This document shows positions 5,206 through 20,747 of a stretch of 20,747 bases of DNA, in pieces. Position numbers and translations under genes: made by a program. Every line of letters begins with the position of its first letter. Position 1 is the stretch's first letter. The stretch is from a virus. The DNA lies in UHGV virus genome UHGV-0017034; one strand, 5' to 3'. The notes under the pieces are model-generated. The model had not been told where the DNA came from. It saw nothing but the letters and a program-made list of their open reading frames with translations, and ran no database searches.

Positions 5206-6039
5206 TCAGTATTCCCCGAAGTCGATCCGGTCATGGATAGAAACGGCTTCAATCTCGGCTGGTGTCGGTTTTTCTTCTGTGGAATACACTTTCACCCATC
5301 CAGAATTACCGTCTTTCTGGACTGTGCGAACTCGTAAACGTGGTGCGCCGGAAGCGGTGCAAGTTAATTGCCATCCACCATCTTCATTAGGTTGAGCGTG
5401 AATTAGTGAAGTATCAGCACTAAATGGATTAGATGCGCTTGATCCCTGATAAGTTACGAAACGGTTTCCGGCTAACGCTTCGCTATCAATACCCCCTGTA
5501 AATGGAGATACGCCAGCACCAATACCAAAATCACCCTGACGTAAGATCCGGCCTTCGGTCGCGATACCCCTTGCAAGAATCCCGCCATCTGGTTCAAGTT
5601 TAAATTCCAGTGTTACCGCTTTGTTATCGCTACCACGGGTTTTATGTGATGTGACGTAAGCATCATAGATGACATAGTAACCAGTGTTAGCAGCACTATA
5701 ACCAGAGTTCACAACATAGAACATACGGAAGCGTAAAGGTGTTTTATCCTCTACCGCTTTCATCAACATGTCTTGATGTTCGTCATCCAGAACACGGTTT
5801 ACTACTAACGTAGTTGATTCAAGTTTACGATAGCCAGCCAACTTACCAGTAACATCATGGTCATATTCTTCTAACGTCTGGATCTCTGTGGATTCGGTGA
5901 TCGTAGGGAATGCTGCGATGTTCTCGATAGGACTAAATGCAGGATCGAAAAAGTCCGGCTGGTTATCCACCATAGTAGACACGGAGACTTCAACATGCGA
6001 CCCCGTGAAAATGTCTAAGTTATCTTGTGTAATATTCAT
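5206..6039 (-). CDS. Virion structural protein (277 aa) of uncertain role; C-terminus carries the KPTPAEI motif also present in the fiber
   Basis: ORF with AAGGGG RBS 6 nt upstream; C-terminal EEKPTPAEIEAVSIHDRIDF parallels fiber GDKPTPAEIGAYSKAEIDRLF; beta-rich composition. Confidence 0.6.
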   Translation of the reverse strand: MNITQDNLDIFTGSHVEVSVSTMVDNQPDFFDPAFSPIENIAAFPTITESTEIQTLEEYDHDVTGKLAGYRKLESTTLVVNRVLDDEHQDMLMKAVEDKTPLRFRMFYVVNSGYSAANTGYYVIYDAYVTSHKTRGSDNKAVTLEFKLEPDGGILARGIATEGRILRQGDFGIGAGVSPFTGGIDSEALAGNRFVTYQGSSASNPFSADTSLIHAQPNEDGGWQLTCTASGAPRLRVRTVQKDGNSGWVKVYSTEEKPTPAEIEAVSIHDRIDFGEY

Positions 6040-6936: not shown

Positions 6937-8943
6937 TCATTCAGCGGAGATGTGAAGAACTTTCAGAGCTTCCGGCTGGGTTACAACGTAATCCAGATCT
7001 ACCCAGATACGCGGAACGATAGCAGACTGTGCGCGGTAGGTAGTGTCATCAATGTCAAGTTCCAGACCACCCCATTCACCGATGGTAATAGCGTCGAACG
7101 ATCCCAGAACGATGTGGTCTACCGGAATAACACCAGAAGTAACTACGTCGTAACCAGCCAGTTTACCGTTTTCGATGATATAACCGGAAACACCGTTATC
7201 TTTCAGGGTAGATTCCAGTTCAGCAGCAGTTGCACCGCTCATTGCAAACTTGATCGCCTGAGCAGGAACGCCAGCGTCGGTCAGTTTAGCAATTTCTTTC
7301 AGGAAGTCTTTATAAGAGAAAGCAGCTTTCTTCTCTACGCGACCAGCATCTACCAGTTGTTTAATCACACCAGCCGGACCACGAGCATTTTCTTTATCAG
7401 ACAGAATCAGTTGTTCCAGTTTGATGCGAACAGCCTGGTTAATGTGATCAGTGATCAGAGTAGCGATGCCGGGTACGGTTTTTAGGCTCGCTCTGCTGAG
7501 CGGATTCCCACCAGCAAACGTCTTAGGAGACAGTTTCACGTTTGCAAATTCAGCTTTACCTTCCGGCGCAGCACCGTTTTCATCAACGAAGCCGAAAGAT
7601 TCAACGCTGGAAGCGGTCATTTTAGGAATAGCGGTCGGCGAAGTCAGACCAGACAGGACTTTCACACCAAGACGACCCAGAACGGATTCCGGCAACAGCA
7701 TCGCTACATAGGAATCATTCAGCAGTTTTTCGTCGGTTACAGCGGTCAGAGTAGCTTTGGTGTTACCATCAGCAGCAGCACGCATAGCAGCAGTCGGAAC
7801 GAATACAGAGCCACCGCGAGCAGCACGACCACGCTGCATAGTTGCAGTAGCAGCCATTGCAGAAAACTCGGCTTCGTGAGCACCCAGAGCTTCACCATCT
7901 ACCAGAGAGCGAATTACGTTGTTCAGGTCAAAAGTTTTTTCCATTTTAGAGTCCTTAATTTGTTGTTCGTTATTACGTTGAGCATTGACGAGATTATTTA
8001 GTGCCTTAGTGCGGAATGCTTCCGGCGTCATATCTTTAACTGCCAATGCGCGTTCTAATTCTTCGTCGTTAATATTTAGCTCGCGTGCAATTTCGCGAAT
8101 TTCTAATTCGTCTTCTTCGGAACGTTCAGCCACTTCCTCGATTTTTTCTTCTTCATCCGGAGCGGCTTCACGTTCTTCTTTTACTTCTTCTGCTTCCCGA
8201 ACAGTTGAACTATCATCATCAACACTTTCAGGATGTTCAGCGTCTTTTCCGTCTTCGAGATTTTCATCTTCTTTATTCTCTTCAACTTGGCGCTCTTGAG
8301 TTTCTTCAACTTCCGATTCTTTATTTTCTTCTACCGGAGCTTCTTCAACCGGAGCGGATTCTTGTTCTTCTTTGATTTCTTCGATTTGTTCTTTAGTCAT
8401 ATCGCGTTTAGCCTCCAAATTAACTGTGATAGTATTTAGAGAGCGATTTAAACCGACCGAATCGTCCGCCGGGACCGTCACAAATGAAATTTCGTGCGGA
8501 ATCCATTTAGAAACAATGAGTTGCGATTTAGCGTAATCGATGTGATATTCTTTAATGTCATAGCCGACAGAAATTTTTTCCATCGTACCTTCAATAACTT
8601 TATTACGAATATCATTAGCCAAAGTGCCATGTTTAGAGAATTTAACCAGAGCACGGCCTACGTTATCCGCATCGATTCGAGCGTCGCAGACTACACCTAA
8701 ATGATTATCGAAAATATGATTGAACAGCAACGGAGCGTTATTATTCAGACGAGACAGATCAACCGCTTCCGGTGTATGTACCAGAATTTCATCTAATACC
8801 ACCATTTCTTGATTTTGCTCATCCCAAAATTGGCGCTGATAAGGCTGTGTACTTGAGAAAGCAATTTCAAATTCGTATTGATCGTTATGCCCTTCGTTAA
8901 TAACTCCACCGTAACCGTTAAGATCGCGGCGAAATTTAAGCAT
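6937..8943 (-). CDS. Prohead protease - scaffold (delta domain) - HK97-fold major capsid protein encoded as one 668-aa ORF
   Basis: N-terminus has HK97-type protease motifs (PLLFNHIFDNHLG with His, KISVGYDI with Ser, HEISFVTVPADD); residues ~180-330 are an acidic coiled-coil linker; C-terminal ~340 aa has major-capsid character; AAGGTGA RBS. Confidence 0.85.
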   Translation of the reverse strand: MLKFRRDLNGYGGVINEGHNDQYEFEIAFSSTQPYQRQFWDEQNQEMVVLDEILVHTPEAVDLSRLNNNAPLLFNHIFDNHLGVVCDARIDADNVGRALVKFSKHGTLANDIRNKVIEGTMEKISVGYDIKEYHIDYAKSQLIVSKWIPHEISFVTVPADDSVGLNRSLNTITVNLEAKRDMTKEQIEEIKEEQESAPVEEAPVEENKESEVEETQERQVEENKEDENLEDGKDAEHPESVDDDSSTVREAEEVKEEREAAPDEEEKIEEVAERSEEDELEIREIARELNINDEELERALAVKDMTPEAFRTKALNNLVNAQRNNEQQIKDSKMEKTFDLNNVIRSLVDGEALGAHEAEFSAMAATATMQRGRAARGGSVFVPTAAMRAAADGNTKATLTAVTDEKLLNDSYVAMLLPESVLGRLGVKVLSGLTSPTAIPKMTASSVESFGFVDENGAAPEGKAEFANVKLSPKTFAGGNPLSRASLKTVPGIATLITDHINQAVRIKLEQLILSDKENARGPAGVIKQLVDAGRVEKKAAFSYKDFLKEIAKLTDAGVPAQAIKFAMSGATAAELESTLKDNGVSGYIIENGKLAGYDVVTSGVIPVDHIVLGSFDAITIGEWGGLELDIDDTTYRAQSAIVPRIWVDLDYVVTQPEALKVLHISAE

Positions 8944-8988: not shown

Positions 8989-10500
8989 TTAGGGATCGGC
9001 TGGGGAATTTTTTTCTTCACCCTCGCCATCAACGATAATATTTAGTGCGCTCTTTTCGGCTTGAATCTCTGAGAATACTTTTTCAGGATCATCACCACGT
9101 TCAAGAATAACGGCAGTACGTGATTTAAGTCCTTTATCAATTAAAGCAATCTCGGCGCTTACGTCTTTAAATGGATCGACGGATTCAAAACGCGGACGAA
9201 TAATAGTTGTATTATCGATAATATGTGGAATTGCAGTAATACGAATCGGAACAATACCACGCGCGGAATAATGGCGTAGATATGCTTCGAAAATTGGCAA
9301 TACCACGGTTTCAATCAATTTGTTTTGCAGTGCTTTAACGCGCGTTCTTTGAAGTAATTCGCCGTAGCGTGCGGCGCTGTAATTTATTTGGCTAGTATCG
9401 CCAGTTAAGCCCTGATTGAACACGCCAAGACCCATCGCTATACTCGTGAACATACCAGCGTTAAAGGAATTGAAATCATCGCCGCTTTGCGTGGATTGAA
9501 TACTCTTGATCGTTGCCCCTTCCGGTAATTCCTGAATAGTACCTGGCGCGAAATCGTGAATAACTTCCGGCGCTTGATATTGTTCATCATCTTCACCAGT
9601 ATCAAAATCGTCACCAGAATCTTTCGGACGCTCGATGAACGCCATGCTACTAGCTGAAATTCGTTTCTGGACCAATACAGCTTCGCGGAATGCGTCTTGA
9701 TGTGCGATATCCTTAATCACTGGCAGGAAGTCAGTCACACCACGCAGAGATTCAGCCGCAAGTGGTTGATAATAATGACATACTTGCGAAGCATCTACGC
9801 GATAGTTATCACCTGTGTAAGTCTGAGTCAGTAGGTTGATTTTACGAAACCAGTATGCTACGGGCTTCATCGTCTCTACGTCATACTCCACACCTTGATA
9901 TATCGCACGGTCTTTGCTTACTTCACGGTTTAGCGACCAGTCGCATTTATCAGCAGACAGGATAGAAACATTTAACTCATTGTTTTCTTTGGTTAAAACG
10001 ATGAAGCACTCACCACCCATAACGCGCTCACGTTCAGCCATTACCAGCAGTTCACGGAAGTTAAAGCGACCGTTACGAGAGAAGCGTTTAGCATTCTGCG
10101 CCCACTTCCAGAAAGCATTCTCGATCTGCTTATTCAGTGCGCTATCAAGTTTGCCATTTGATTTAACGATTGATGGCTTCGGATCTAGGCCAGTACCAAC
10201 CACCATATCGGTGATGTATTGCGTGTAGCGACTGCCTACGGAAGTGTTTAAGGCCAGAGTACGACCCTGATCATAAAGGCGCTTACCGTTCGATTTGAGA
10301 GCCTTATTGAAGGTTCCTGTAATGGTGTCTTGTTGAAGTGATCCATCAATGCGATCACCAACCAGACCTAAACTACGTTTAGATAGGTCTTTCTGGAATT
10401 TTTCTACTTGCTTATCGATGAAAATTTTTGGTTGTTGCTGGCGGTGATTAGTTTTAACTGGAGTTTCTACCGCCTTTTTGCGTCGAAAAAGATTAAACAT
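8989..10500 (-). CDS. Portal protein (503 aa)
   Basis: Size, position between terminase and protease/capsid, acidic C-terminal tail; AAGGGG RBS overlapping the stop of the upstream gene. Confidence 0.75.
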   Translation of the reverse strand: MFNLFRRKKAVETPVKTNHRQQQPKIFIDKQVEKFQKDLSKRSLGLVGDRIDGSLQQDTITGTFNKALKSNGKRLYDQGRTLALNTSVGSRYTQYITDMVVGTGLDPKPSIVKSNGKLDSALNKQIENAFWKWAQNAKRFSRNGRFNFRELLVMAERERVMGGECFIVLTKENNELNVSILSADKCDWSLNREVSKDRAIYQGVEYDVETMKPVAYWFRKINLLTQTYTGDNYRVDASQVCHYYQPLAAESLRGVTDFLPVIKDIAHQDAFREAVLVQKRISASSMAFIERPKDSGDDFDTGEDDEQYQAPEVIHDFAPGTIQELPEGATIKSIQSTQSGDDFNSFNAGMFTSIAMGLGVFNQGLTGDTSQINYSAARYGELLQRTRVKALQNKLIETVVLPIFEAYLRHYSARGIVPIRITAIPHIIDNTTIIRPRFESVDPFKDVSAEIALIDKGLKSRTAVILERGDDPEKVFSEIQAEKSALNIIVDGEGEEKNSPADP

Positions 10501-10510
10501 GATTTACCCC

Positions 10511-11005
10511 TTATCGCGTAAGACGTAATTTGATATTTTTAATCGGGCTAATTCCCTGTTTACGTCGTTCGGCTTGAATTAATTTTGATAACTGACGTTC
10601 ATAATCAACTTTTAGAGTCTGGAGAACACCCAATGACTCATAAACGAAAGTATTCCCTTTCACTGTCATTTGAGATAATGCGGCTTCGTCCCCAGATAAA
10701 CGGGCGAAAATAACTTGTTCCAAAATGGCGATAGTTTCCCGCAGATATTCTTTTTTGGATTGTTTGGCGAATACTGGCAAAACAGTTAATTCCTGCATTG
10801 ATACCAGTTCTTCTTCAAAAGTTATTACGATGGTATATTTACCTTCGGCAAAATCTAAGGTTTTAATCTCATGATTAGCCGGAGTATCATCAACCTGATA
10901 AATGATACCTTTACTATTTCCTACCTGAATTGTTACACCCTCTTCATTCGCCAGCGTGATTTTTTCACCTTTACGAATTACTAAGGGAATTAGTTCTAAA
11001 CTCAT
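10511..11005 (-). CDS. Hypothetical protein (164 aa) with a gpW-like (head-tail joining) C-terminal half
   Basis: ORF with AAGGGG RBS; sits between large terminase and portal, where lambda W lies; C-terminal LRETIAILEQ...GNTFVYESLGVLQTLKVDYERQL loosely matches the gpW helix-strand-strand-helix pattern. Confidence 0.4.
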   Translation of the reverse strand: MSLELIPLVIRKGEKITLANEEGVTIQVGNSKGIIYQVDDTPANHEIKTLDFAEGKYTIVITFEEELVSMQELTVLPVFAKQSKKEYLRETIAILEQVIFARLSGDEAALSQMTVKGNTFVYESLGVLQTLKVDYERQLSKLIQAERRKQGISPIKNIKLRLTR

Positions 11006-11077: not shown

Positions 11078-12982
11078 TTAGAACGATGTTATCCAGCTAC
11101 GGCCTCTATTTGGACGTCTGACGATGTTTTGACGTTGTGGTCGTGTGATTGGCTTAGTTTCTTCTATTTGCTCGTTAGATTGCGATTTAGGAGCTTTTAC
11201 GGGTTCTTCGACAACACGGTTTAAGCTGTCTTTCATTGCAATGAGTTTATCCCATGACATTTTTGAAAGAACGTAGCGAGAAGCCGCTGTAGCATACACT
11301 GCGCAGTCGAGCGCCTCGTTCCTAACGCCTGGGTTCTTTACCCATCTCACGCCAGTAGTAGTACGCTTGACAGATTCACTTAAAAGCTGATCGAGATAAT
11401 CATCAGGAACGGTTCCTGATATTTCTAAGCTAATGTGAGGATTGTCTTTCAGGTTTCTAACCAACATTTCACGAAATGCAGTTTTACCCACGTTAACACC
11501 CAACATAAGCAATTCATGACCACCTGTGCGGGTAGGTTTAACCGGAATGATCGGAGCGTTACCAGCAGAACTACCTTTGATAGCGTGTAAGTTCTTCCAC
11601 TTGCCGCAAATACGGTATCCAGCTTGAGTGAATCGACCGTTCGATGTATCAAGGAAGCTGGCGAGCATAGGAACACGATCACCCGATACAGTAGTAAATT
11701 TGGTTTTATGGAAGTTGATTAATCTATCCCATACAGGGGATTCATATCGTTCACAGTTATGATCGTAAAAGCTGCGATGATCCAGAATATAAATCTTATC
11801 CTTTGCCACGCCCATGATTGTAGTTTCTGCGCGATCTAATTGCTGGTCAGTACCCGCACACAAGAAAATCACGTCATCAGGGATATTCTCGATAGAAACA
11901 TCTGTTTTTAGTTGTTCCAGTTCATTTGCTTCTACTGCCGTGTCCTGATCGTCGTATACCTTGCCTAACACGGTGTTATAAAATGATTGTAAATCAAAGG
12001 ATTGCCACGCATGACTAAAATCAACCACACAAGCGCGGATCGTGCTGAAAGGTGAATACAGACGGCTGATCCAGAATCCTGCTACCTCACTTTCACGGGT
12101 TGCTCTCCACTCTCCTTGTGCCACCGCCCTGATCCGCTCTCCTTCTGTCCATGCGTTCTTACAGTGGGGGCAAATATAACGAGCGGTATCAGGATCGGGT
12201 AAGTTCTTACCATCAATGTTACGCCATTCAAACTGTACGTTTTCCCACTCGATCACCTGGTGTCTACCGCAATGAGGACACGGAACAAAAAACATACGCA
12301 TATCGCTTGATAACCATTGCTGGTTAATGCTTCCGAGCTTACTGGTCGGGGTACTGGATACGACTAATCGGCCTTCATCGCCAAAGGTAGTTAAACGGTT
12401 AGCAGCCAGTGCCACCGGATCACCTTCTTCTGAGGCTGTAGCAGCATCGATTTCGTCAAGCAGTCCGACCTTTGCTGTCTTACCGCGTAGGGTTGATGGA
12501 CTAGTAAGCGATACCATATAAAGGAAGTGGTTTGATTTGAGCTGGAGCTGATTGTTGTTATTAACAGAATTGCGATCATTCTTGTCTGTAACCACGTCTT
12601 TTAATGCATCACATGCTTCGATAGACGGTCGGATCTTACCCGCGAGATATTGAGACATTTCTTTAGCGGTTGATTGTCCGATAATCATATTGCATGGATC
12701 GTTAGCCATCTGGTTAAATAGGATGCCGTTCAAGATGGTAGTCTTTCCGATCTGCGCACTGGTCATCAGAACATACTTTTTCTTGTTCTCAAGGAAAGGA
12801 GCATCAATCATACCTTTCTGGAATGACAGCAATTTAACTTTATCCCCAGCTTGAGGACCATCTACCAGCACCATATTCGCTTCGCACCATTCAGAAGGAA
12901 GGAGCTTAGGCGGTGGCGTAATATATTTGGCTGCATTTTTGAGAATCTTTTTTAATTTGGCCTTATTTGAAATCAGTTTCAT
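11078..12982 (-). CDS. terL: Terminase large subunit, lambda GpA family (634 aa)
   Basis: Walker A-like [10 protein letters not shown]; motifs matching lambda gpA as recalled ([11 protein letters not shown] vs LTAGIDSQLDR; [11 protein letters not shown] vs RRNEALDCFVYA; CPHCG...YICPHC zinc-finger-like pairs); GAGGGT RBS. Confidence 0.9.
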
Positions 12983-13067
12983 GTAATTACCCTCATTACG
13001 AAATATGAAGGTATTTATTAAATTGTTGATATTTTGATAAATACGGGTATTAATTAAAGGGGGTTGT

Positions 13068-13670
13068 ATGCTAATTAATCAGCAACAAAGAGATGAATTA
13101 GAATTAGCCTTGTCTTGTACCGATCATGAATATCGTTTACCAGTTAAGCATAAGCATTTAAAAACCGACTACACTACATCTGGCTTTAGTCGTGAGGAAG
13201 CGAAAGAGATTTTAATAGAATTTTACCGCGATAATGGTTATACAGACGTTCACAACTTCTTTAAGAAGCATAGAACATCACATACAGAGTTTCGGAGAGT
13301 CCGAGATTGGTTTGATTTTGATATCAAGCGTTATTATCGAGTGGATGACGGTCCTATCTATCGGTTGCAGTGGAAGCCGATCCGAGAAGTGTTGAAACAG
13401 AAGAGATTGAATCACGCAATTACACGCTATCGTAACGAGGCTTTCAAGAAAGGCTATGGTGATACAAGGGAACTATTCGTTGAACTCGCTAACGTGCGTT
13501 ATAGCCACTATTACAACGATCCTAAAGGGTTCTTTGAAGTGCTTCGCAAGGTTGATATAAGTCGGGGTACATACTATTCACGGTTGAAGAAGTACGGGAT
13601 TAAGGCAGAGTTCTTTATGAGTATTGACGATGGAGAACTTTTTCCGATAAAATGTAAGTCCTCTAAATAA
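13068..13670 (+). CDS. Basic DNA-binding-like protein (200 aa) with a C-terminal HTH motif
   Basis: AAGGGGG RBS 4 nt upstream; C-terminal [16 protein letters not shown] resembles the HTH of the two small paralogs at 13705 and 17159; divergent from terL. Confidence 0.55.
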
Positions 13671-13704
13671 AGGTGAACATTCACTTTAATTTGGAGAAAT
13701 GACT

Positions 13705-13932
13705 ATGACTACTAAAGCTACTCGCGGTCGTCCTGCCCGTTTTAACGCTGAACAGATGGCTGATATTGCCTACGCTTACTATACAGCGGATCGTGGTAAG
13801 GAAGCGAAAGAACAGATTCTTAGTGAACATGGGATCTCAATCGCCCAATTCTATAAGAATATGAAGAAGTTAGACATTAAATTCTATGTTCAGATCGGTG
13901 ATGGTCAGATCGTAGAAGCAACAGGTTTTTGA
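13705..13932 (+). CDS. Small HTH protein (75 aa), paralog of the 17159-17338 product
   Basis: N-terminal ATRGRPARF; HGISIAQFYKNMKKLDIK HTH-like motif; GGAG RBS is correctly spaced for the ATG at 13705 rather than 13699. Confidence 0.55.
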   Translation: MTTKATRGRPARFNAEQMADIAYAYYTADRGKEAKEQILSEHGISIAQFYKNMKKLDIKFYVQIGDGQIVEATGF

Positions 13933-13947
13933 GTTTTGATTCTCTTT

Positions 13948-13972
13948 GCCACTCTTCGGAGTGGCTTTTTTG
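13948..13972 (+). terminator. Rho-independent terminator (plus strand)
   Basis: GCCACUC-UUCG-GAGUGGC perfect 7-bp stem, UUCG loop, followed by U6. Confidence 0.75.
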
Positions 13973-14034
13973 TATCCGCACAAAACTGAGCACATCTCTA
14001 TGATCTATAGATGCCAGCAAAAATGCTGTTATCT

Positions 14035-14071
14035 ATAAAAACAAAAAGCCCAGCGCAATTATGCGCCGGGC
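14035..14071 (-). terminator. Rho-independent terminator (minus strand), convergent with the previous one
   Basis: Minus-strand RNA GCCCGGCGC-AUAAUU-GCGCUGGGC (9-bp stem with one G-U) followed by UUUUUGUUUUUAU. Confidence 0.7.
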
Positions 14072-14077
14072 GATTAA

Positions 14078-14893
14078 TTACAGTCCGAAGTGTTCCAGTG
14101 ATCCAACATTCTGGCGGAGACGTTCAGCCGCTTTATTTTGAATCAGAATAGTGTTATTTGGCTGCGGCAGTTTAAGAGTTGCTTTCTGTTCTTCTTCCAG
14201 AACACCCAATTCCACCAACACCGGAAGCACATCAACAGTAAAAGAAAGCTGATAGTGAGTGTTCATGCTGCAAAACGGTAAAGCGGAATCATTAGCAACA
14301 TACCCACACGGCTTGTTATTTTCATCATAGACGCGTTCAATGTAGCCAGCAGTACGTAAGGCCGTCAGTGCTTCTTTAACCTTCGTAGCGCCCTTTTTAG
14401 CGCCTAACAGACGGGTCATTGAATGGCTATCAACGGATTTGCGATAATGAAGTTCAATCAGTTGTTTGTTTTCGCGAGTTTTCTTTAACGCCAGTTCGAT
14501 CCAGTCGGTTTCTTCAAAGTCTGCATACGGGTTAACGGCTAAACGTTCCTGCCGCAGTTTTTCATTTTCTTCTTTCAGTCGTTTCCATTCCTGAATAACA
14601 ACCATTCGACGCTTAACATCGTAACCAGTGACAAGAGTCAGCGTCATTTCTTCGTCTAAGTGATATTCGGTTTGTTCACGTCCACACTGATCAAGATAGG
14701 TGCGCTCAAAACTGAGCACATCTAATTCCAGAGCATCGAGCATGGATTTAATATCACGTTTAACGTTTTTGTGTTCTTTTCCGGTAAATTCAGCGATCTG
14801 ACGAGAAGACATGGTCAGTGGTTTGGTGTTATCAACAACCAGAGACACGGAAGCAGTTTTAACAGCAGTATTCATAGCAGTAACAGTATTCAT
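14078..14893 (-). CDS. Rha-family phage regulatory protein (antirepressor-like), 271 aa
   Basis: N-terminal LTMSSRQIAEFTGKEHKNVKRDIKSMLDALELD...FERTYLDQCGREQTEYHLDEEMTLTLVTGYD matches the Rha domain pattern as recalled; AAGGGG RBS. Confidence 0.6.
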   Translation of the reverse strand: MNTVTAMNTAVKTASVSLVVDNTKPLTMSSRQIAEFTGKEHKNVKRDIKSMLDALELDVLSFERTYLDQCGREQTEYHLDEEMTLTLVTGYDVKRRMVVIQEWKRLKEENEKLRQERLAVNPYADFEETDWIELALKKTRENKQLIELHYRKSVDSHSMTRLLGAKKGATKVKEALTALRTAGYIERVYDENNKPCGYVANDSALPFCSMNTHYQLSFTVDVLPVLVELGVLEEEQKATLKLPQPNNTILIQNKAAERLRQNVGSLEHFGL

Positions 14894-14981
14894 AATTAAA
14901 TTCCCCTTAAACGGTTTAGTGATTTGGTCCTCCTAGTTCCGGCAGCATCACCGGAACATTTTTATTTATGATAGAAATTTA

Positions 14982-15314
14982 TTACCAATCGATTTCTACT
15001 TGGTCTTCTTCATAATAAGGAATCGCATATTCATAACGCCAATTTTCGATGATTTCACGTTCTTCATTAGTAAGAAGGTGATTGTTAACTGGAGTCGCAT
15101 TGTGATTACCAGCTTCGAATTGCTCGCGAACTTCCAGCATTGCATGAATACCAGTTAAGGTCATCAGATCAAACGGAACATGCATACTACGGGAGATAGT
15201 TTCACGGGATACGCCCCAATCATTTTCTACATGGCTAGGGGTTACAGAAACGGTTTTGCCGGAGATTTTAACAGTCCAGTCATACAGGGATTTAGTGATG
15301 GTAAATTCTTTCAT
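14982..15314 (-). CDS. Hypothetical protein (110 aa)
   Basis: ORF with AGAGGA RBS 7 nt upstream; no recognisable family. Confidence 0.6.
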   Translation of the reverse strand: MKEFTITKSLYDWTVKISGKTVSVTPSHVENDWGVSRETISRSMHVPFDLMTLTGIHAMLEVREQFEAGNHNATPVNNHLLTNEEREIIENWRYEYAIPYYEEDQVEIDW

Positions 15315-15370
15315 GTTACATCCTCTTTACAAATCTAGGTCAAATATAATAAAAGTTGTCAAGTGCGATA

Positions 15371-15399
15371 ATCATAAAAAAGTCATAAATTTTTGTCAA
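15371..15399 (-). promoter_or_regulatory. Sigma70-type promoter (minus strand) TTGACA-17-TATGAT
   Basis: -35 at 15394-15399 and -10 at 15371-15376 read on the minus strand; lies ~50 nt upstream of the 14982-15314 gene. Confidence 0.55.
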
Positions 15400-15412
15400 T
15401 ATACCTTGACAA
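15393..15412. promoter_or_regulatory. Operator-like inverted repeat TTGTCAA-N6-TTGACAA overlapping the -35
   Basis: Perfect 7-bp inverted repeat; the 9-mer GTCAAGTGC nearby (15358-15366) recurs at 16778-16786. Confidence 0.4.
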
Positions 15413-15434
15413 GACGCCAAAGGGTTGACCTAAC

Positions 15435-15893
15435 TTACAGCATATCTAAGCCTTCATCGTAACCGTAGAAGCCACCGTGAGAAGAGAAAGCGATTGGTGC
15501 GTAGTCTTCGTCTTCCTCATCTTCTTCATCTTGTTCTGGGGCTTCCTGAGCGGTTTCTTTGCCGTAATCAGCCATAATCTGGTCAAGATCGGCGATCCCA
15601 TAGTAAGAGCCTAAATCAACGTCATATTCACGGACTTGAAACGGCAGATCATCACGAACAATAATTGCTGGAATATCGTTGTATTGAAGACGACCTTCAT
15701 CAGTAAAACAGTCGATGATCACAGTAGGACGACCATTTCGTTTTAAAGCGTAGAAAGCAGTTGAGTAGTTGGAGTCTTCGGAATGACGAATGATGTTATA
15801 ACCACGATTAGCGAAAACTTCTAGCATATGGAAGTTGCCATAGTTTTCAGAGTCCAGACCCAGAAGTACGAAAGGAGTTTTAGTATTGATCAT
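15435..15893 (-). CDS. Hypothetical protein (152 aa) with a strongly acidic C-terminal tail
   Basis: ORF with GAGGA RBS; C-terminus EAPEQDEEDEEDEDYAPIAFSSHGGFYGYDEGLDML; no recognisable family. Confidence 0.6.
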   Translation of the reverse strand: MINTKTPFVLLGLDSENYGNFHMLEVFANRGYNIIRHSEDSNYSTAFYALKRNGRPTVIIDCFTDEGRLQYNDIPAIIVRDDLPFQVREYDVDLGSYYGIADLDQIMADYGKETAQEAPEQDEEDEEDEDYAPIAFSSHGGFYGYDEGLDML

Positions 15894-16085
15894 AGTGGAA
15901 ATCCTCTAAAAGAAAGTGAATCAAGTAAGTTCACTATTATTTATAACGAGAATTTTTTATCTATTTGGAAGTGATTGGATTCAGTCGGGCTAAAGCCCTC
16001 CTTCATATATTTGATTAAATCATCATCAAAACGAAGAAGTATCTTTAGAATATAAGAATCTTTCTTTTGGAGAAATTATAATCAG

Positions 16086-16350
16086 GAAGCAATTTAGCAA
16101 CCGAAGGTTGCAATCCCGAAGGGATACCAATACCTTTCTAGAAAGTGATTGTTACTCACTTCGTTCGTTTACTAGAATCAGTTAGTAACTAGTATTAAAT
16201 CCCTTTCTAAGAAAATCCTTTCAAAAGCGAGTGAACGCCGTAGGCGTGAACGTGAGCGAAGCGAACTATCCAATCCCTTTCGAATCCTGCTTGCAGGTCT
16301 TAGAAGGTGTTGATGGGCGCTTCGCGCACGGCTACGCCGTATTCTTTTTG
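16086..16350 (+). ncRNA. Candidate structured noncoding RNA (hairpin-dense, ORF-free, ends at a terminator)
   Basis: Hairpins GCAACC-GAA-GGTTGC (16097-16111), ATCCC-GAA-GGGAT (16113-16125), palindrome CTTTCTAGAAAG (16134-16145), AGTGA/TCACT, ACGCC-GTA-GGCGT, CCTGC-TT-GCAGG; stops in all frames; weak TATAAT at ~16074; 5' end uncertain. Confidence 0.3.
16317..16350 (+). terminator. Rho-independent terminator (plus strand) with tandem hairpins
   Basis: GCGC-UUC-GCGC then ACGGC-UAC-GCCGU followed by AUUCUUUUUG; no protein-coding gene upstream on this strand. Confidence 0.6.
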
Positions 16351-16471
16351 CGAGATCTTTCTTGAACGTAGTGAGAGAAAACGAGCAAAAAGGAGAACGT
16401 TAGTTCGAATTTTATATTCTATGGTCTGTGGGGTGAAATGTCTTTCAAGATCATACACTTATGAGATTGAA

Positions 16472-16593
16472 GTGTAGGGTTAGTGTAGGTGTGTAGGTTT
16501 CATAGTGTAGGTTTGAGGGTGTTATAGTGTAGGTTTACTGACTAGTGTAGTGTAGGCCAATCCCTTTAAAGCGTAGGTTTGTAGTGTAGGTTT
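16472..16593. repeat. Iteron array: about 9 copies of GTGTAGG(TTT)
   Basis: Copies start at 16472, 16483, 16491, 16505, 16527, 16550, 16584, with a variant GCGTAGGTTT at 16571 and a half-site at 16545; spacing often 11 or 22-23 bp; flanked by an AT-rich tract (16594-16700). Confidence 0.7.
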
Positions 16594-16698
16594 TTCATCA
16601 AAAATTTTGATAGAAAATTCTTGTATATTATTTAACCGGAAAATCACCAAAAATCGCTGTAAATGCATGATTTAAAAAGAATTATCAAAAGGTCGCCG

Positions 16699-16707
16699 TG
16701 CTATAAT
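16699..16707 (+). promoter_or_regulatory. Extended -10 promoter element TGCTATAAT
   Basis: TG-n-TATAAT perfect match; -35 weak. Confidence 0.35.
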
Positions 16708-16787
16708 AGGTTATAAAGGTTGATAATCGTTATCCGCCATTTTCACACAAAAATTTTGATAGTCATTTCTCGCTTAGGTCAAGTGCA

Positions 16788-16816
16788 TTGACAACTGTCA
16801 AGGATTATTTTATACT
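16788..16816 (+). promoter_or_regulatory. Sigma70 consensus promoter TTGACA-17-TATACT with overlapping palindrome TTGACA-AC-TGTCAA
   Basis: -35 at 16788-16793, -10 at 16811-16816, exact 17-bp spacer; GTCAAGTGC 9-mer at 16778-16786 shared with the 15358 region. Confidence 0.6.
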
Positions 16817-17158
16817 TTTTCTCATTGGTAGGGGTTGAAATTTTCGAAACAATCCCCATATTGATGATAAACAAGATTTTTTCGTGTATAAATACATGCA
16901 TGAAATGATTGTTCACTTCTGAAAATCCCCTGATTCACTGTTAACACACACAGCACTGGTTAAACACACAGTGCCTTTTCGATTGAATAATGTACGAATT
17001 GATTAATTATTAATCTTCTCTTTAGCAATTCGTGCTCCCGCTGATCAGATATACAGTGGTTTTGCAGGGTTTTCTGAAATGACTTTTATAAATAGAAGTA
17101 TCGAGGGCGAAAAGCTCTTTTTATTGTCCTTATTAATCCACATTTGAGGAATCTACTT

Positions 17159-17338
17159 ATGGCTAGACCTGTTAAGTTTACTCGTGAAATGATTGTTGAT
17201 ATTGCTAAACGCTTTTATGGCGATACTGAACGAGGCGGCGAGAATTTCTTTAAGAAGGAAGGAATTGATAGAAGCGGATTCTATAAGCTAATGAAGAAAT
17301 ACGAAATTCAGATAAAGATTAACGTTCAAGTTTGTTAA
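17159..17338 (+). CDS. Small HTH protein (59 aa), paralog of the 13705-13932 product
   Basis: GAGGAA RBS 9 nt upstream of ATG 17159 (the track ORF begins at a TTG at 17144); MARPVKFTREMIVDIAKRFY...GIDRSGFYKLMKKYEIQ parallels the other paralog. Confidence 0.55.
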   Translation: MARPVKFTREMIVDIAKRFYGDTERGGENFFKKEGIDRSGFYKLMKKYEIQIKINVQVC

Positions 17339-17379
17339 TCCACTTTCACTGAGAATTATACGATGGCTTTAAAAATAAA

Positions 17380-17409
17380 AAGCCTCCCTTGTTGCAGCAA
17401 AGGAGGCTT
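17380..17409. promoter_or_regulatory. Long hairpin between the small HTH gene and the 333-aa gene; terminator-like only in minus orientation
   Basis: AAGCCUCC...GGAGGCUU with inner UUGC/GCAA pairing; plus-strand A-run upstream gives a U-tract only on the minus strand. Confidence 0.4.
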
Positions 17410-17454
17410 GAAATGAACAATTAAAACTAACACAGCATTCAGGAGTATTTATAA

Positions 17455-18456
17455 ATGAAAAATTCTAAGCGCATCACCTTCAACCTGTTTATTAAATCCA
17501 ACGGCAAACTGAACATTACCGTCATGGAAGGTAAAGCAAGCAAACAAGACAAATCCTTTGAAGTAGTATCCGGTAAGACTCTGACCGAAATGCGTCAGAA
17601 TGCTGGCATCAAAGACGGTGCTGAATGGCAGATCACTAACCGTTTCGACAAACGTCACGTTAAACCTACACTGGTAGAAGGTGAATCCGTTTATTGCTTC
17701 GCTCGTGCTGTTAAAGCCGATGAAACTTACTATCTCGCTGTTGTTAAAACTGCTTCCGGCTTCCGTGCTGTAATGCATCACAAGAGCAAGCGTAACGAAT
17801 ACGGCGTAGAGACCCAGGAAGTCGCAAAACGCTTCCGTACTGTTGCTACCGAATCCACTGTAAAGGATGTTTCTGGTACTGTTAACACCGTTAAAGGCGG
17901 TTCCTTCTACAACCACGCATTACAGGTTACTTCCTCCTTCTTCTGCAAAAAAGAAGCACAGAAAGAAGTTGCTCCGGTAGTAGTTGAAGAAGTTAAAGAA
18001 GAAGTTGCAGTGGTTGAATCTTCCGAAGTTGAAGCACTGAAAGCACGCATTGCTGAACTGGAAGCTGAAAACGCATCTCTGAAAGCTGAACTGGCAGCAC
18101 AGGAAACCACTTTCGAAGTAGCAGCGGTTGAAGTTGAAGCAGTTGAAGAAAAATCCATTGATGAAGAACTGGAAGAACTCCTTAACTATCGCTGGGGTAA
18201 CGGTGAAAAAGTAGAACAGGAAGAACAGAAAGAAGCTGATCCGGTAGTAGTTCCGGTTGAAGAAAAATCCGCACCTGTTACTAACTTTGAATCCCTGCGC
18301 AATAACTTTATGGCTAAATTCAAAACCACTTGGGAAGATACCGAAGAAGAACAAGAAGAGATTGAAGTAAACGAAGACGAGATCCGCGAAGCACAGATGG
18401 CACTGCATGACGCTATCTACGACACCAACTACAGCGCCTACGCATACGCAGCTTAA
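17455..18456 (+). CDS. Hypothetical abundant protein (333 aa): N-terminal globular domain plus acidic Glu/Val/Ala-rich coiled coil
   Basis: AGGAG RBS; codon usage visibly different from neighbours (CGT, CTG, GGT, TCC, ACC, GAA, AAA, TTC, TAC preferred), typical of highly expressed E. coli-type genes; leucine-zipper-like EALKARIAELEAENASLKAELAA. Confidence 0.8.
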   Translation: MKNSKRITFNLFIKSNGKLNITVMEGKASKQDKSFEVVSGKTLTEMRQNAGIKDGAEWQITNRFDKRHVKPTLVEGESVYCFARAVKADETYYLAVVKTASGFRAVMHHKSKRNEYGVETQEVAKRFRTVATESTVKDVSGTVNTVKGGSFYNHALQVTSSFFCKKEAQKEVAPVVVEEVKEEVAVVESSEVEALKARIAELEAENASLKAELAAQETTFEVAAVEVEAVEEKSIDEELEELLNYRWGNGEKVEQEEQKEADPVVVPVEEKSAPVTNFESLRNNFMAKFKTTWEDTEEEQEEIEVNEDEIREAQMALHDAIYDTNYSAYAYAA

Positions 18457-18471
18457 TAGAGGGGTGAATCT

Positions 18472-18714
18472 ATGATGAATCAAAACAAAGAATTTCTGGG
18501 TAATCTGATGTTAGAAATTACCAAAATGAAAGAAAGAATGGTAGCGATGGAATCAGAGATTAAAACACTTAAAGCTGATAATAAGGCGTTGAGAAAGTCC
18601 TTAAAGCTGATTGATGAGACTAATGCGGTTATGATGGATCATGTATTCCCTGAGTGGCGAAATGAAACTAAACCTACACAACATAAGAAACTTACACTTC
18701 GAATTGTTGCATAA
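18472..18714 (+). CDS. Small coiled-coil protein (80 aa)
   Basis: GAGGGG RBS; heptad-like MKERMVAMESEIKTLKADNKALRKSLKLI; starts 16 nt after the upstream stop. Confidence 0.55.
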   Translation: MMNQNKEFLGNLMLEITKMKERMVAMESEIKTLKADNKALRKSLKLIDETNAVMMDHVFPEWRNETKPTQHKKLTLRIVA

Positions 18715-18736
18715 AAAAAAGGACTCCGAAGAGTCC
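18713..18736 (-). terminator. Bidirectional-type terminator hairpin (U8 tract on the minus strand)
   Basis: GGACUC-CGAA/UUCG-GAGUCC perfect 6-bp stem; plus-strand A8 at 18713-18720 gives U8 after the stem on the minus strand; also lies immediately 3' of the plus-strand 80-aa gene. Confidence 0.65.
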
Positions 18737-18812
18737 CTAGTAAGTTTAGGTTAGGTTTGCACAACAAAGATGAGGTTATAATGAACATAATGCTACATTA
18801 TTCTTTAAAGCC

Positions 18813-18838
18813 AGAAAAATAACCGCCCCGAAGGGCGG
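18813..18838 (-). terminator. Rho-independent terminator (minus strand) ending the small-terminase transcript
   Basis: Minus-strand RNA CCGCCC-UUCG-GGGCGG followed by UUAUUUUUCU. Confidence 0.65.
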
Positions 18839-19000
18839 GAGGATTAATACTCAATCTATACTTGTTATGTTTTTATGTTGTATAGATCCTGACTATGAAA
18901 ACACTGTACTGGAAGTGTGTTTTTATGGCTTTTAATCGGGAATCCTCAAAGAAGATCCCCTGTTAATAACCATAAGGAGAAAAGGCAGATTACACTATTA

Positions 19001-19171
19001 TTTAGTATCCTTTTTACAGCAACTAAAAAGAATAAACAAAAAGAAGCATACCCAGCCGTAAGGCGTACCGATTAGAAATTTGAAAAACACCACCAGCGAT
19101 ATAAAAATCAATTTAATGCCAGCGACGATAGTCAAAAACAGCAGAGTAGCAAAGTAGACAAAAAGATCCAT
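19001..19171 (-). CDS. Small hydrophobic membrane protein (56 aa, about two TM segments), below the ORF-track cutoff
   Basis: AAGAGG RBS 7 nt upstream of ATG; hand translation MDLFVYFATLLFLTIVAGIKLIFISLVVFFKFLIGTPYGWVCFFLFILFSCCKKDTK. Confidence 0.5.
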
Positions 19172-19224
19172 AGATAATCCTCTTTGAAAACGACCATCAT
19201 CTATAGTTCAATTCATCGATTTAA

Positions 19225-19326
19225 TTAATGATACTTGAAAGCGTTACACAAAGTAGAAATGCCAATATGTGCCAGTGAATATACGATAGTTAATCCTACA
19301 GCCAGATAAATCAAAAATTCAACCAT
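19225..19326 (-). CDS. Possible 33-aa hydrophobic peptide
   Basis: GAGGA about 9 nt upstream; hand translation MVEFLIYLAVGLTIVYSLAHIGISTLCNAFKYH; very short, weakly supported. Confidence 0.3.
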   Translation of the reverse strand: MVEFLIYLAVGLTIVYSLAHIGISTLCNAFKYH

Positions 19327-19356
19327 AGGTAAATCCTCAAATAAGAAAAAGGTTAG

Positions 19357-19375
19357 CGGGGGATGTTCTCCCCCG
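19357..19375 (-). promoter_or_regulatory. Hairpin downstream of the small terminase gene
   Basis: CGGGGGA-N5-UCCCCCG perfect 7-bp stem; U-rich tract begins about 6 nt after the stem on the minus strand. Confidence 0.35.
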
Positions 19376-19426
19376 TAGACGTTGACCAGCTCAACATCCT
19401 TCACGTATATATTTAGTATCTAATTT

Positions 19427-19978
19427 TTAAGACACATCAAATTCATCGTCTTCTTCTGGTTCTTGTTCCGGTTCATCCATTAATGGTAATTCTTCTTCCT
19501 CGTCTTCTCCCAAATCTGCATTTTCGAACAAGTCCCCTACTTCATTTAAACGACGCTCGATAATCTCTCTTAGCTTATTCTTCAATGTTTTCTGGTCATT
19601 GGCAGATTCGAGAATTTCTAGGGCATCGATTGTGGCGATCTGCAAAATAGTCTGCTTCACTTTCCCGCAATATTCCGCTAGCTCCTGCTCCACATACCCG
19701 ACGGGAATCAGGAGATTCATCGCTTCCTGGTTCTCTCGTTCGGCTGCATCTGCTAATGCTCTCTCACGGCGTAATTTCTCTACGTCGATTTGTTCCTTGA
19801 CAGTAGTTTCTTTAAGCGGGTTGATGATATTTTTCAAGACCCATTCTGTTCCTTCTTTGGCTGGCACGCGGCGGGTATTGGTATTAAATGGCATTCCTCG
19901 TTCTTGCCATTTCTTAGCGGCGTTAATTGTATAGCCGTATAAACGGGAAATTTCTGTAAGGGTTAATTCTTCTTTCAT
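19427..19978 (-). CDS. terS: Terminase small subunit, lambda Nu1-like (183 aa from the RBS-supported start)
   Basis: LTLTEISRLYGYTINAAKKWQERGMPF parallels the lambda Nu1 N-terminal HTH (IFGASIRTIQNWQEQGMPV as recalled); acidic C-terminal tail; GGAGGA sits 8 nt upstream of Met-6 (19978), while the first ATG at 19993 has no SD. Confidence 0.65.
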   Translation of the reverse strand: MKEELTLTEISRLYGYTINAAKKWQERGMPFNTNTRRVPAKEGTEWVLKNIINPLKETTVKEQIDVEKLRRERALADAAERENQEAMNLLIPVGYVEQELAEYCGKVKQTILQIATIDALEILESANDQKTLKNKLREIIERRLNEVGDLFENADLGEDEEEELPLMDEPEQEPEEDDEFDVS

Positions 19979-20089
19979 CCGGTTATCCTCCATTAAATTT
20001 GCGTAAAATTATTTATCTGATCTGCGCATTCAGGAGAGCGCCTAAAACGCTTTATAACGAAGGGAAAGATCGAGGCATGGAAAGGGATT

Positions 20090-20140
20090 GGCGGGTGTTA
20101 ATAGTCGCGTAGCGACCGCGCTGGTGGGCTGCACTGCACC
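20090..20140. other. Candidate cos / packaging-initiation site
   Basis: GC-rich island in AT-rich DNA about 120 bp upstream of the Nu1-like gene, containing the perfect palindrome GTCGC-GTA-GCGAC (20104-20116); GGAAAGGGA-like repeats lie between it and the gene. Confidence 0.25.
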
Positions 20141-20217
20141 TGTTTTGAAATCTCACACGTACATCAAAAACCGGGGTGCCGAAAACTCCCTTTATTTCAT
20201 CCGTGGAACAGTACCTT

Positions 20218-20246
20218 TTGATTTGGTCAAGTCTTTTTTATAAATA
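20218..20246 (+). promoter_or_regulatory. Possible promoter for the 20278 gene (TTGATT, short spacer, TATAAA/ATAAAT)
   Basis: -35-like TTGATT at 20218-20223 and -10-like TATAAA at 20239-20244; spacer is 15-16 nt, so weak. Confidence 0.3.
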
Positions 20247-20277
20247 ATCGAAAATATTTTTCACGCGAGGGCAAATC

Positions 20278-20583
20278 ATGAAGACTAAAGATATTAAGAT
20301 TGAATTTGAAACTGTTGATGACGTTCGGGAACATCGCATTGATTCTACTGGCTGCATCTTCCAGCTTACTAACTCCCCTATTGGATTGATTATCTATGTA
20401 GCAGAAGATGACGTGTACGCTATATGGGATGGACAGGATGAGTTTAAAGGCGGGAATAGCCATCTGATCAATACTCATGAGGGATTTGATCCGACTCCTG
20501 TCTGTATGCTTGCTTATCACGTAACACTGGATGAACTACCGGAAGCAAGCGCGCGTATCCGTAGAATGAAAGACATTAAGTGA
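20278..20583 (+). CDS. Hypothetical protein (101 aa)
   Basis: GAGGG RBS 5 nt upstream of ATG; followed 20 nt later by a strong terminator; divergent from terS. Confidence 0.6.
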   Translation: MKTKDIKIEFETVDDVREHRIDSTGCIFQLTNSPIGLIIYVAEDDVYAIWDGQDEFKGGNSHLINTHEGFDPTPVCMLAYHVTLDELPEASARIRRMKDIK

Positions 20584-20602
20584 TGTAAGTGATTGATTCT
20601 AT

Positions 20603-20633
20603 AGCCCTGTCCTTGTGATGGGGCTTTTTTATT
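20603..20633 (+). terminator. Rho-independent terminator (plus strand)
   Basis: AGCCCUGUC-CUUGU-GAUGGGGCU (9-bp stem with two G-U) followed by UUUUUUAUU. Confidence 0.7.
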
Positions 20634-20649
20634 GGAAAATCGGGTGTTA

Positions 20650-20747
<98 letters not shown>

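Follow-up and report, generated by a model that had tools for sequence, protein, structure and literature searches.

In phage lambda the packaging module runs in the order cos, Nu1, A, W, B, C, with cos upstream of Nu1, and the genes for the small and large terminase subunits, Nu1 and A, are translationally linked neighbours. Cos phages with non-adjacent terminase genes are known from the P2/186 type, in which the small (gpM) and large (gpP) subunits are encoded in different transcription units; in P2 the two genes are divergently oriented and separated by structural genes (scaffold, capsid). In T7, 18.5/18.7 lie between genes 18 and 19. The locus described here belongs to a viral DNA of 20,747 nucleotides (UHGV-0017034; the whole stretch is referred to as the window), in which the genes for a Nu1-type small terminase (terS) and a gpA-type large terminase (terL) are located on the same (minus) strand, 6444 bp apart. 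The intervening DNA, hereafter the block, is probably the phage's own early region.

The window resembles the lambda packaging module in that its phrog_57-type TerS, gpA-type TerL, gpW-like protein, gpB-type portal and protease/capsid are encoded in the lambda order, and in the presence of a GC-rich, partly palindromic element upstream of terS. It differs from lambda in the distance of 6.4 kb between terS and terL, which belong to separate units with a whole probable early region between them and no translational linkage, in the position of the lysis genes after the tail genes, in the use of a large serine recombinase and in an attP about 0.7 kb upstream of terS. Unlike the P2 genes, the pair is on the same strand and is separated by DNA that appears to be regulatory and replicative and is non-structural. 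Additional genes between terS and terL are also found in T7 and in Xanthomonas phage FoX1 (a 190-aa open reading frame, ORF), but there only one or two co-transcribed same-strand genes intervene, with no promoter-terminator architecture or origin-like region between. We know of no earlier description of a complete early region placed between terS and terL and kept there in three genera.

The closest deposited sequence is a siphovirus-like segment of PQ671644, 'Escherichia phage DCP80' (TerL 45%, TerS-like 32% and portal 36% identical). As in the window, its Nu1-like gene is not upstream-adjacent to terL, and a 1.2-kb non-coding region with a TGAAGG-hairpin-GACTGAA element precedes the terL cluster; unlike the window, the segment has no early genes or integrase, so that the true circular order is unreadable. 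The record itself (PQ671644.1; loci L022, L023 and L030 in our set) is 141 kb long and classified as a T4-like Gaprivervirus; nucleotides ~75-26290 are siphovirus late genes related to the prophage family discussed below and the rest is T4-like; the record appears to be an assembly chimera.

Annotation software and rules for finding terS expect the gene just upstream of terL, and the prophage family to which the window belongs provides a conserved counter-example in well-studied hosts. The family would also lend itself to testing whether the two subunits of a lambda-type holoterminase have to be synthesised in a coupled manner. In practice the finding has a modest impact, P2-like phages being a known case of terminase genes that lie apart. 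Of greater interest than the split itself is the ORFan early region. The lysogeny and replication machinery of this lineage is without recognisable homologs.

The terS-terL split and its conservation

The likely explanation of the split, in our judgement, is that the window is the right arm of a temperate siphovirus prophage of about 35 kb, integrated in ycdX by a large serine recombinase, and that the block is the control and replication region of this same phage. Host ycdX occupies the last ~80 bp of the window (20666-20747), with the prophage-host junction at about 20666, and 5396 of 5426 complete E. coli genomes match the window at 20666-20747 only. A complete relative is present in strain ETEC1739 as a 35.1-kb prophage splitting ycdX, in the order ycdX' / two small genes / large serine recombinase / lysis / tail / head / terL / block / terS / one small gene / 'ycdX; its serine integrase matches phrog_95 (7e-53), and the terminase genes are split as in the window. 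On this map the block and the integrase corner are the sole non-structural DNA, the rest being lysis and structural genes. The family has a fixed order on the coding strand of att, moron slot, probable cos, terS with two membrane peptides, 6.4-kb early region, terL, head, tail, lysis, integrase and att. The layout of the terminase genes and the block is as follows.

11078-12982, minus: terL, gpA-family large terminase, 634 aa, first gene of a long late cluster
12983-13067, no strand: AT-rich gap of 85 bp separating terL from the divergent o13068
13068-13670, plus: o13068, 200 aa, two copies of a 3-helix and beta-hairpin domain
13699-13932, plus: o13699, 77 aa, one copy of the domain
13948-13965, plus: terminator-like hairpin after o13699
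14071-14048, minus: terminator-like hairpin after rha, convergent with the preceding one
14078-14893, minus: rha, regulator of the Rha/Ant family
14078-15893, minus: unit o15435-o14982-rha, with o15435 (152 aa, acidic C-terminus) and o14982 (110 aa)
15399-15371, minus: 11/12 sigma-70 consensus site internal to that unit
15894-17143, no strand: non-coding control region, 1250 bp without a credible ORF
17144-18714, plus: unit o17144-o17455-o18472
17144-17338, plus: o17144, 64 aa, paralog resembling a helix-turn-helix (HTH) protein
17380-17409: hairpin between o17144 and o17455
second gene of that unit, plus: o17455, 333 aa, N-terminal domain of ~170 aa, acidic coiled coil and C-terminal domain
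last gene of that unit, plus: o18472, 80 aa, coiled coil
18838-18823 and 18738-18719, minus: two terminator-like hairpins at the end of the terS transcription unit
18998-19171 and 19225-19404, minus: small hydrophobic membrane peptides of 57 and 59 aa, apparently co-transcribed with terS
19427-19978, minus: terS, Nu1-family small terminase, 183 aa from M6 (ORF 19427-19993)

A reading made earlier from the sequence alone had reported that terS is of the Nu1 type, that terL is of the gpA type and that the two share a strand without being adjacent, and both the profile matches and the ORF map bear this out. TerL matches Pfam GpA_ATPase (2e-56, 191.8 bits against a cut-off of 25.6), GpA_nuclease (4e-45, 154.6 bits against 22.5) and phrog_15 (2e-138); the phrog_57 match of TerS is described below. 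The content ascribed to the gap (two terminators, two membrane-peptide genes, a plus-strand operon, the 1.25-kb control region and a minus-strand regulatory operon) is likewise as claimed; the second plus-strand pair, o13068 and o13699, divergent from terL, had not been spelled out. The two small peptides have no PHROG match and are conserved beside terS in relatives.

Terminator-like sites are enriched in this region (17 found, 6.2 +/- 2.8 expected), and the terminators and opposite-strand genes between terS and terL place the two in separate transcription units. Lambda-style translational linkage is thus not possible as the genes are laid out, and the subunits must meet in trans. Independent regulation of the two subunits, as the sequence-only reading proposed, is a reasonable deduction from this arrangement, in which the intervening terminators and opposite-strand genes preclude co-transcription and coupling. 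TerS would be produced from its own short, terminator-ended unit, terL would head a separate late cluster, and the subunits would assemble in trans.

Relatives were compared by tblastn with all window proteins in 21 IMG/VR loci. The order terS-block-terL is found in 12 of the 12 E. coli loci that hold both genes (L003, L005-L010, L014, L015 and L019-L021). Three Salmonella loci keep the split with a TerS about 70-75% identical and a spacing of ~6.3 kb, as does Proteus columbae, with TerL 54% and TerS 56% identical and a spacing of 5.6 kb. The block is present in the same order, at 5.6-7 kb, in every related locus reaching that far. Within this fixed layout the alleles are mosaic, with rha, o15435 and o17144 reassorting among relatives.

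More distant relatives were sought with a profile scan using the TerL alignment (27-32% identical) and counted if enough upstream sequence was available. A same-strand ORF of at least 80 aa abuts terL in 64 of 64 such gpA-type prophages; in Pseudomonas phage Persinger terS overlaps terL, and in FoX1 one ORF intervenes. Adjacency is thus ancestral in the wider gpA clade and the split derived. On the question of ancestral adjacency that the sequence-only reading had raised, adjacency holds for the wider clade, and the family loci that reach from terS to terL all lack it.

That reading had also suggested that a mobile accessory or replication module was inserted into the packaging operon. An insertion that broke an ancestral terS-terL operon would explain why adjacency is the rule in the outgroup, where some rearrangement must have occurred at some point, and it draws on the exchange of rha, o15435 and o17144 alleles and of the iteron/o17455 module among relatives and on the slightly lower GC content of the whole block (0.39, structural genes 0.43). 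Against it, presence/absence polymorphism of the block was not seen in 17 loci from three genera, and the longest flank-to-flank matches are of 10-14 nt at E >= 0.68, so that the block has no bounding repeats. Pfam, PHROG and NCBIfam scans found no recombinase, transposase or integrase family in it. The block genes have a GC content of 0.41, which is no real compositional break; the E. coli chromosome, at roughly 0.51, is far above both the block and the structural genes. Neither of the two boundary signs, repeats or a compositional shift, was therefore found. Moreover, the phage has no other early region with which it could run without the block, and mosaic early regions are ordinary among temperate phages. 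An inserted mobile or accessory module, for all or part of the block, is thus very improbable and for recent time essentially excluded; the part of the suggestion that stands is a plausible replication module, given the iterons and the protein that covaries with them. The split is best described, from these comparisons, as a derived but old and fixed feature of the lineage and not a recent or mobile insertion.

Iterons, structured elements and proteins of the block

The explanation of the block as the phage's own control and replication region would have divergent units arranged around an iteron-bearing 1.25-kb non-coding region and a toolkit of an o17455-type iteron-binding protein, a Rha-type regulator and three paralogous HTH-like proteins. 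The non-coding region measures 1245-1389 bp in 19 loci, reaches 1.46 kb in Proteus, and contains the following elements.

16006-15980, minus: single-copy element [A/G]TGAAGG(A)-hairpin-GACTGAA upstream of the o15435 operon, in the same position in L001-L029
16095-16130, minus-strand sense: two neighbouring cUUCGg tetraloop hairpins, within the part of the region that is best conserved
16472-16590: iteron array within 120 bp, seven GTGTAGG and one GCGTAGG on the same strand
16788-16816, plus: 11/12 sigma-70 consensus facing o17144

GTGTAGG occurs nine times in the whole window against 1.2 expected. Relatives bear one of three repeat types, TAGTGTAGGTTT, TTTCAGGGGCAAAA or GCTAGGGAT, in arrays of 5-13 direct repeats, and the repeat type agrees with the N-domain type of the o17455-like protein (~310-340 aa) in 21 of 21 loci; the three protein types have one common architecture. 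The o17455 gene is ~0.9 kb from the repeats and the intervening o17144 reassorts independently. That the types match despite this reassortment is characteristic of a DNA-protein pair with cognate specificity. By this covariation o17455 would be an iteron-binding protein, and iterons and o17455 together would form an origin/initiator or immunity module, with the region 15894-17143 as probable origin and switch.

Iteron/initiator specificity modules are familiar from lambda O-ori, from the Rep-ori of the phage-inducible islands SaPI/PICI and from plasmid Rep-iterons. As in those systems, the repeat sequence in this family changes together with the N-terminal domain of a nearby protein. It is unlike them in that o17455 has no recognisable Rep, helicase or winged-helix family and in that the repeats are ~0.9 kb away with a gene between; an initiator role is here proposed by analogy. 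The iterons were also considered as TerS-binding (cosB-like) sites, and this was ruled out, as repeat type is independent of TerS type: locus L003, with a TerS 99% identical to that of the window, bears type B repeats, and L019, with a TerS 100% identical, type A.

The minus-strand RNA of 15894-16480 is predicted to fold with z = -3.9, and none of 100 shuffled sequences was as stable. Rfam searches of the window and of the non-coding region, at gathering and permissive thresholds, gave no credible match to a family. The TGAAGGA-hairpin-GACTGAA element occurs in seven variants over 24 loci, with the stem kept by compensatory changes (GGC/GCC; GGGC/GCCC; GTGC/GCAC in Salmonella; CCC/GGG in DCP80). 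In DCP80 (L022, position 1207) it is found ~80 nt upstream of small ORFs leading into terL. The element may serve late transcription as a structural signal, at the RNA or the DNA level.

Apart from rha, whose product matches Pfam Phage_pRha (1e-13) and phrog_63 (3e-19), the block genes encode ORFans. o17455 has no family match in Pfam, PHROG, NCBIfam or PADLOC. The same holds for o13068, o13699 and o17144, which are paralogs by cross-matches and together contain four copies of a ~60-aa domain with the motif FFKK.GIS...FY..MKKY.I. The most conserved gene of the block is o13068 (90-100% identity in E. coli loci, 68% in Proteus); its AlphaFold2 (AF2) model (mean confidence, pLDDT, 76) has no meaningful neighbour in the PDB. 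o13068 and o13699 are probably DNA-binding regulators. Homolog searches with o17455 and o13068 returned only unnamed 'hypothetical' proteins, with named hosts all in Enterobacterales, and PADLOC detected no defence system in the block.

A further and more doubtful proposal is that an undescribed kind of early region has been built from these ORFan parts. An exchangeable iteron/binding-protein cassette, tandem-domain paralogs and a structured hairpin element would together control replication, immunity and late transcription, and the cos-terS unit would be an autonomous packaging-recognition cassette beside attP, maybe timed differently from terL. We regard this as a tentative possibility.

Identity of TerS and the region upstream of its gene

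The assignment of the 19427-19978 product as a Nu1-type TerS is well supported but not proven. Alignment with 19 homologs places the start at M6 (position 19978). The protein matches phrog_57, 'terminase small subunit', at 7e-16, with residues 2-173 on profile positions 5-190 of 199; lambda Nu1 matches the same profile at 1e-76. BLASTP against lambda Nu1 gave E 4e-5 over the N-terminal 27 aa, with a WQExGMP HTH motif in both. The AF2 model (pLDDT 77) has a winged HTH (wHTH) at 8-45, long coiled-coil helices at 45-157 and a disordered acidic tail, resembling the domain plan of Nu1. Its best neighbour in the PDB is a 72-residue chain, 6hn7_B (prob 0.97, E 0.23), from work on how pathogenicity islands of E. 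coli redirect the packaging of helper phages. In homolog searches TerS was found in E. coli, Shigella and Salmonella only, mostly labelled 'hypothetical', which is also the PGAP label ('hypothetical protein') in most complete-genome and homolog records examined; a profile scan of genome contigs with the TerS alignment gave no match.

Several points weigh against the explanation preferred here. The TerS assignment stands on the PHROG profile and the architecture: Pfam Phage_Nu1 scores 15.2 bits against a gathering threshold of 30 and covers residues 14-36 only, a PDB sequence search with TerS gave chance matches only, and the fold matches are weak, with MerR and excisionase HTHs ranking close behind 6hn7_B. 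The term 'early/replication region' derives from position, iterons and exclusion; the Rha-family regulator is the sole block protein with a recognisable family in Pfam, PHROG, NCBIfam and PADLOC, and those searches found no repressor, Cro, initiator or helicase-loader homologs among the block proteins. DnaA boxes are not enriched. A search for consensus promoters found none for terL and none for terS.

The sub-threshold Pfam score also favours a different identity for the Nu1-like protein, namely a DNA-binding protein of MerR/excisionase type, such as the recombination directionality factor (RDF) of the serine integrase or an attP-side regulator, with the true TerS elsewhere, for example among the terL-side paralogs. 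Its fold neighbours include excisionases (RdfS, 8dgl), BldC and MerR proteins; in the excised circle its gene would be near attP and the integrase, and no RDF is otherwise identified. In addition, terL is directly flanked by o13068 and o13699, two conserved genes whose products are probably DNA-binding. Several results oppose this. The phrog_57 match is full-length and is to the family that lambda Nu1 matches, and no excisionase PHROG reached 0.01; the succession of wHTH, coiled coil and acidic tail resembles the domain plan of Nu1. In two distant prophages a hidden Markov model (HMM) of the TerS family matches terL-abutting ORFs, at the usual site of terS, and the DCP80 homolog comes after the lysis genes, like terS of Persinger. 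As for a terS beside terL, the sequence-only reading had named an overlooked small ORF there as the case that would overturn the split. The window ORF map has no terL-strand ORF of at least 80 aa abutting terL, in the 85-bp gap at 12983-13067 there is neither an ORF of terS size nor a consensus sigma-70 promoter directed towards terL, and o13068 has no TerS-like family or fold match and is on the strand opposite to terL, so that this case fails. A MerR/excisionase-type identity is therefore improbable.

Upstream of terS lies an intergenic region of ~300 bp (19979-20277, no strand) with a GC-rich patch, a palindrome and one CCAATCCCTTTC motif. The palindrome, GTCGC-NNN-GCGAC at 20105-20117, is inside the patch, whose core, GCGGTCGCTACGCGAC, is kept in those E. 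coli and Salmonella loci whose TerS is at least 74% identical and replaced in loci carrying the 53-72% TerS type. By analogy with lambda this patch is the best candidate for cos, although its covariation with TerS type could also be simple linkage. Of the cultured relatives, FoX1 has a deposited genome that begins 73 bp upstream of terS, and Persinger has its lysis genes immediately before terS. A conserved TTGAC(A/C) ~245 nt upstream of terS was not called as a promoter, there being no properly spaced -10 element.

Cos could alternatively be placed within the block, at or close to the 1.25-kb non-coding region, in which case terS and terL would lie at opposite ends of the virion DNA and the split would mark the genome termini. 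Metagenomic contigs L001, L004 and L011 break inside the non-coding region, the siphovirus-like DCP80 segment has a similar 1.2-kb non-coding region at its start and stops just past terS, and CCAATCCCTTTC occurs once beside terS and three times in the non-coding region. Repeats and mosaic junctions are, however, where contigs would be expected to break, the DCP80 record has been wrongly joined to T4-like DNA, and the type of the iterons goes with the o17455-type protein, not with the type of TerS (L003 and L019). The start of the FoX1 record, the position of the Persinger lysis genes and the conserved GC-rich palindrome all favour a site upstream of terS. We consider a packaging site within the block quite unlikely.

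The AATCCCTTT motif (extended form CCAATCCCTTTC) has four copies in the window, with 0.33 expected.

16198, 16272 and 16559, plus: three AATCCCTTT copies in the non-coding region
20081, minus: one copy just upstream of terS (CCAATCCCTTTC span 20080-20091)

It was tried as a link between terS and the non-coding region and not retained, as it shows no clear covariation with any protein type.

The prophage family and its neighbouring genes

Members of the family are carried by about 56-63 of 5426 complete E. coli genomes (~1%), chromosomal in every case, and are also present in Salmonella and Proteus. Megablast with 10.2 kb of the window found no match among deposited phage genomes, and the best TerL identity among 50,697 deposited phage records is 45%, in the chimeric PQ671644. 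This points to a temperate-phage lineage without a cultured or sequenced phage representative. Literature searches on the ycdX prophage and on split terminase genes returned nothing relevant to this prophage family.

The end of the prophage beyond terS contains a variable slot.

within 20278-20665, plus: moron-like ORF, 101 aa, with a terminator at 20603-20625 and then the phage att arm

Phages integrated in ycdX carry the 101-aa ORF between att and terS. In a relative integrated in hicB (L014, 350-1320) the same slot holds a 264-aa secreted protein instead, the end structure being otherwise alike; where the hicB insertion recurs in complete genomes, RefSeq annotates this protein as LprI-family. 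The att arm, GGGTTGACTAC(G/A)TTCGGGTT, is common to ycdX- and hicB-integrated phages despite the different host target genes. In the Proteus columbae relative, integration is again in a PHP/ycdX gene. In ETEC1739 the o17455 homolog (L025, 40095-41091) is broken into two ORFs of 177 and 146 aa, which suggests a frameshift and possible decay of that copy.

Downstream of terL the late cluster continues on the minus strand.

10511-11005, minus: gpW-like gene
8989-10500, minus: portal, gpB-type (Phage_portal_2)
6937-8943, minus: protease-capsid fusion, followed by tail genes

A 1174-aa tail-fibre-like gene (1608-5132) and a 277-aa major-tail-protein-like gene (5206-6039) are located between the head-completion genes and the tail-tube gene (138-608), which is an unusual position. 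The fibre alleles diverge strongly among relatives, with identities from 37% to 96%.

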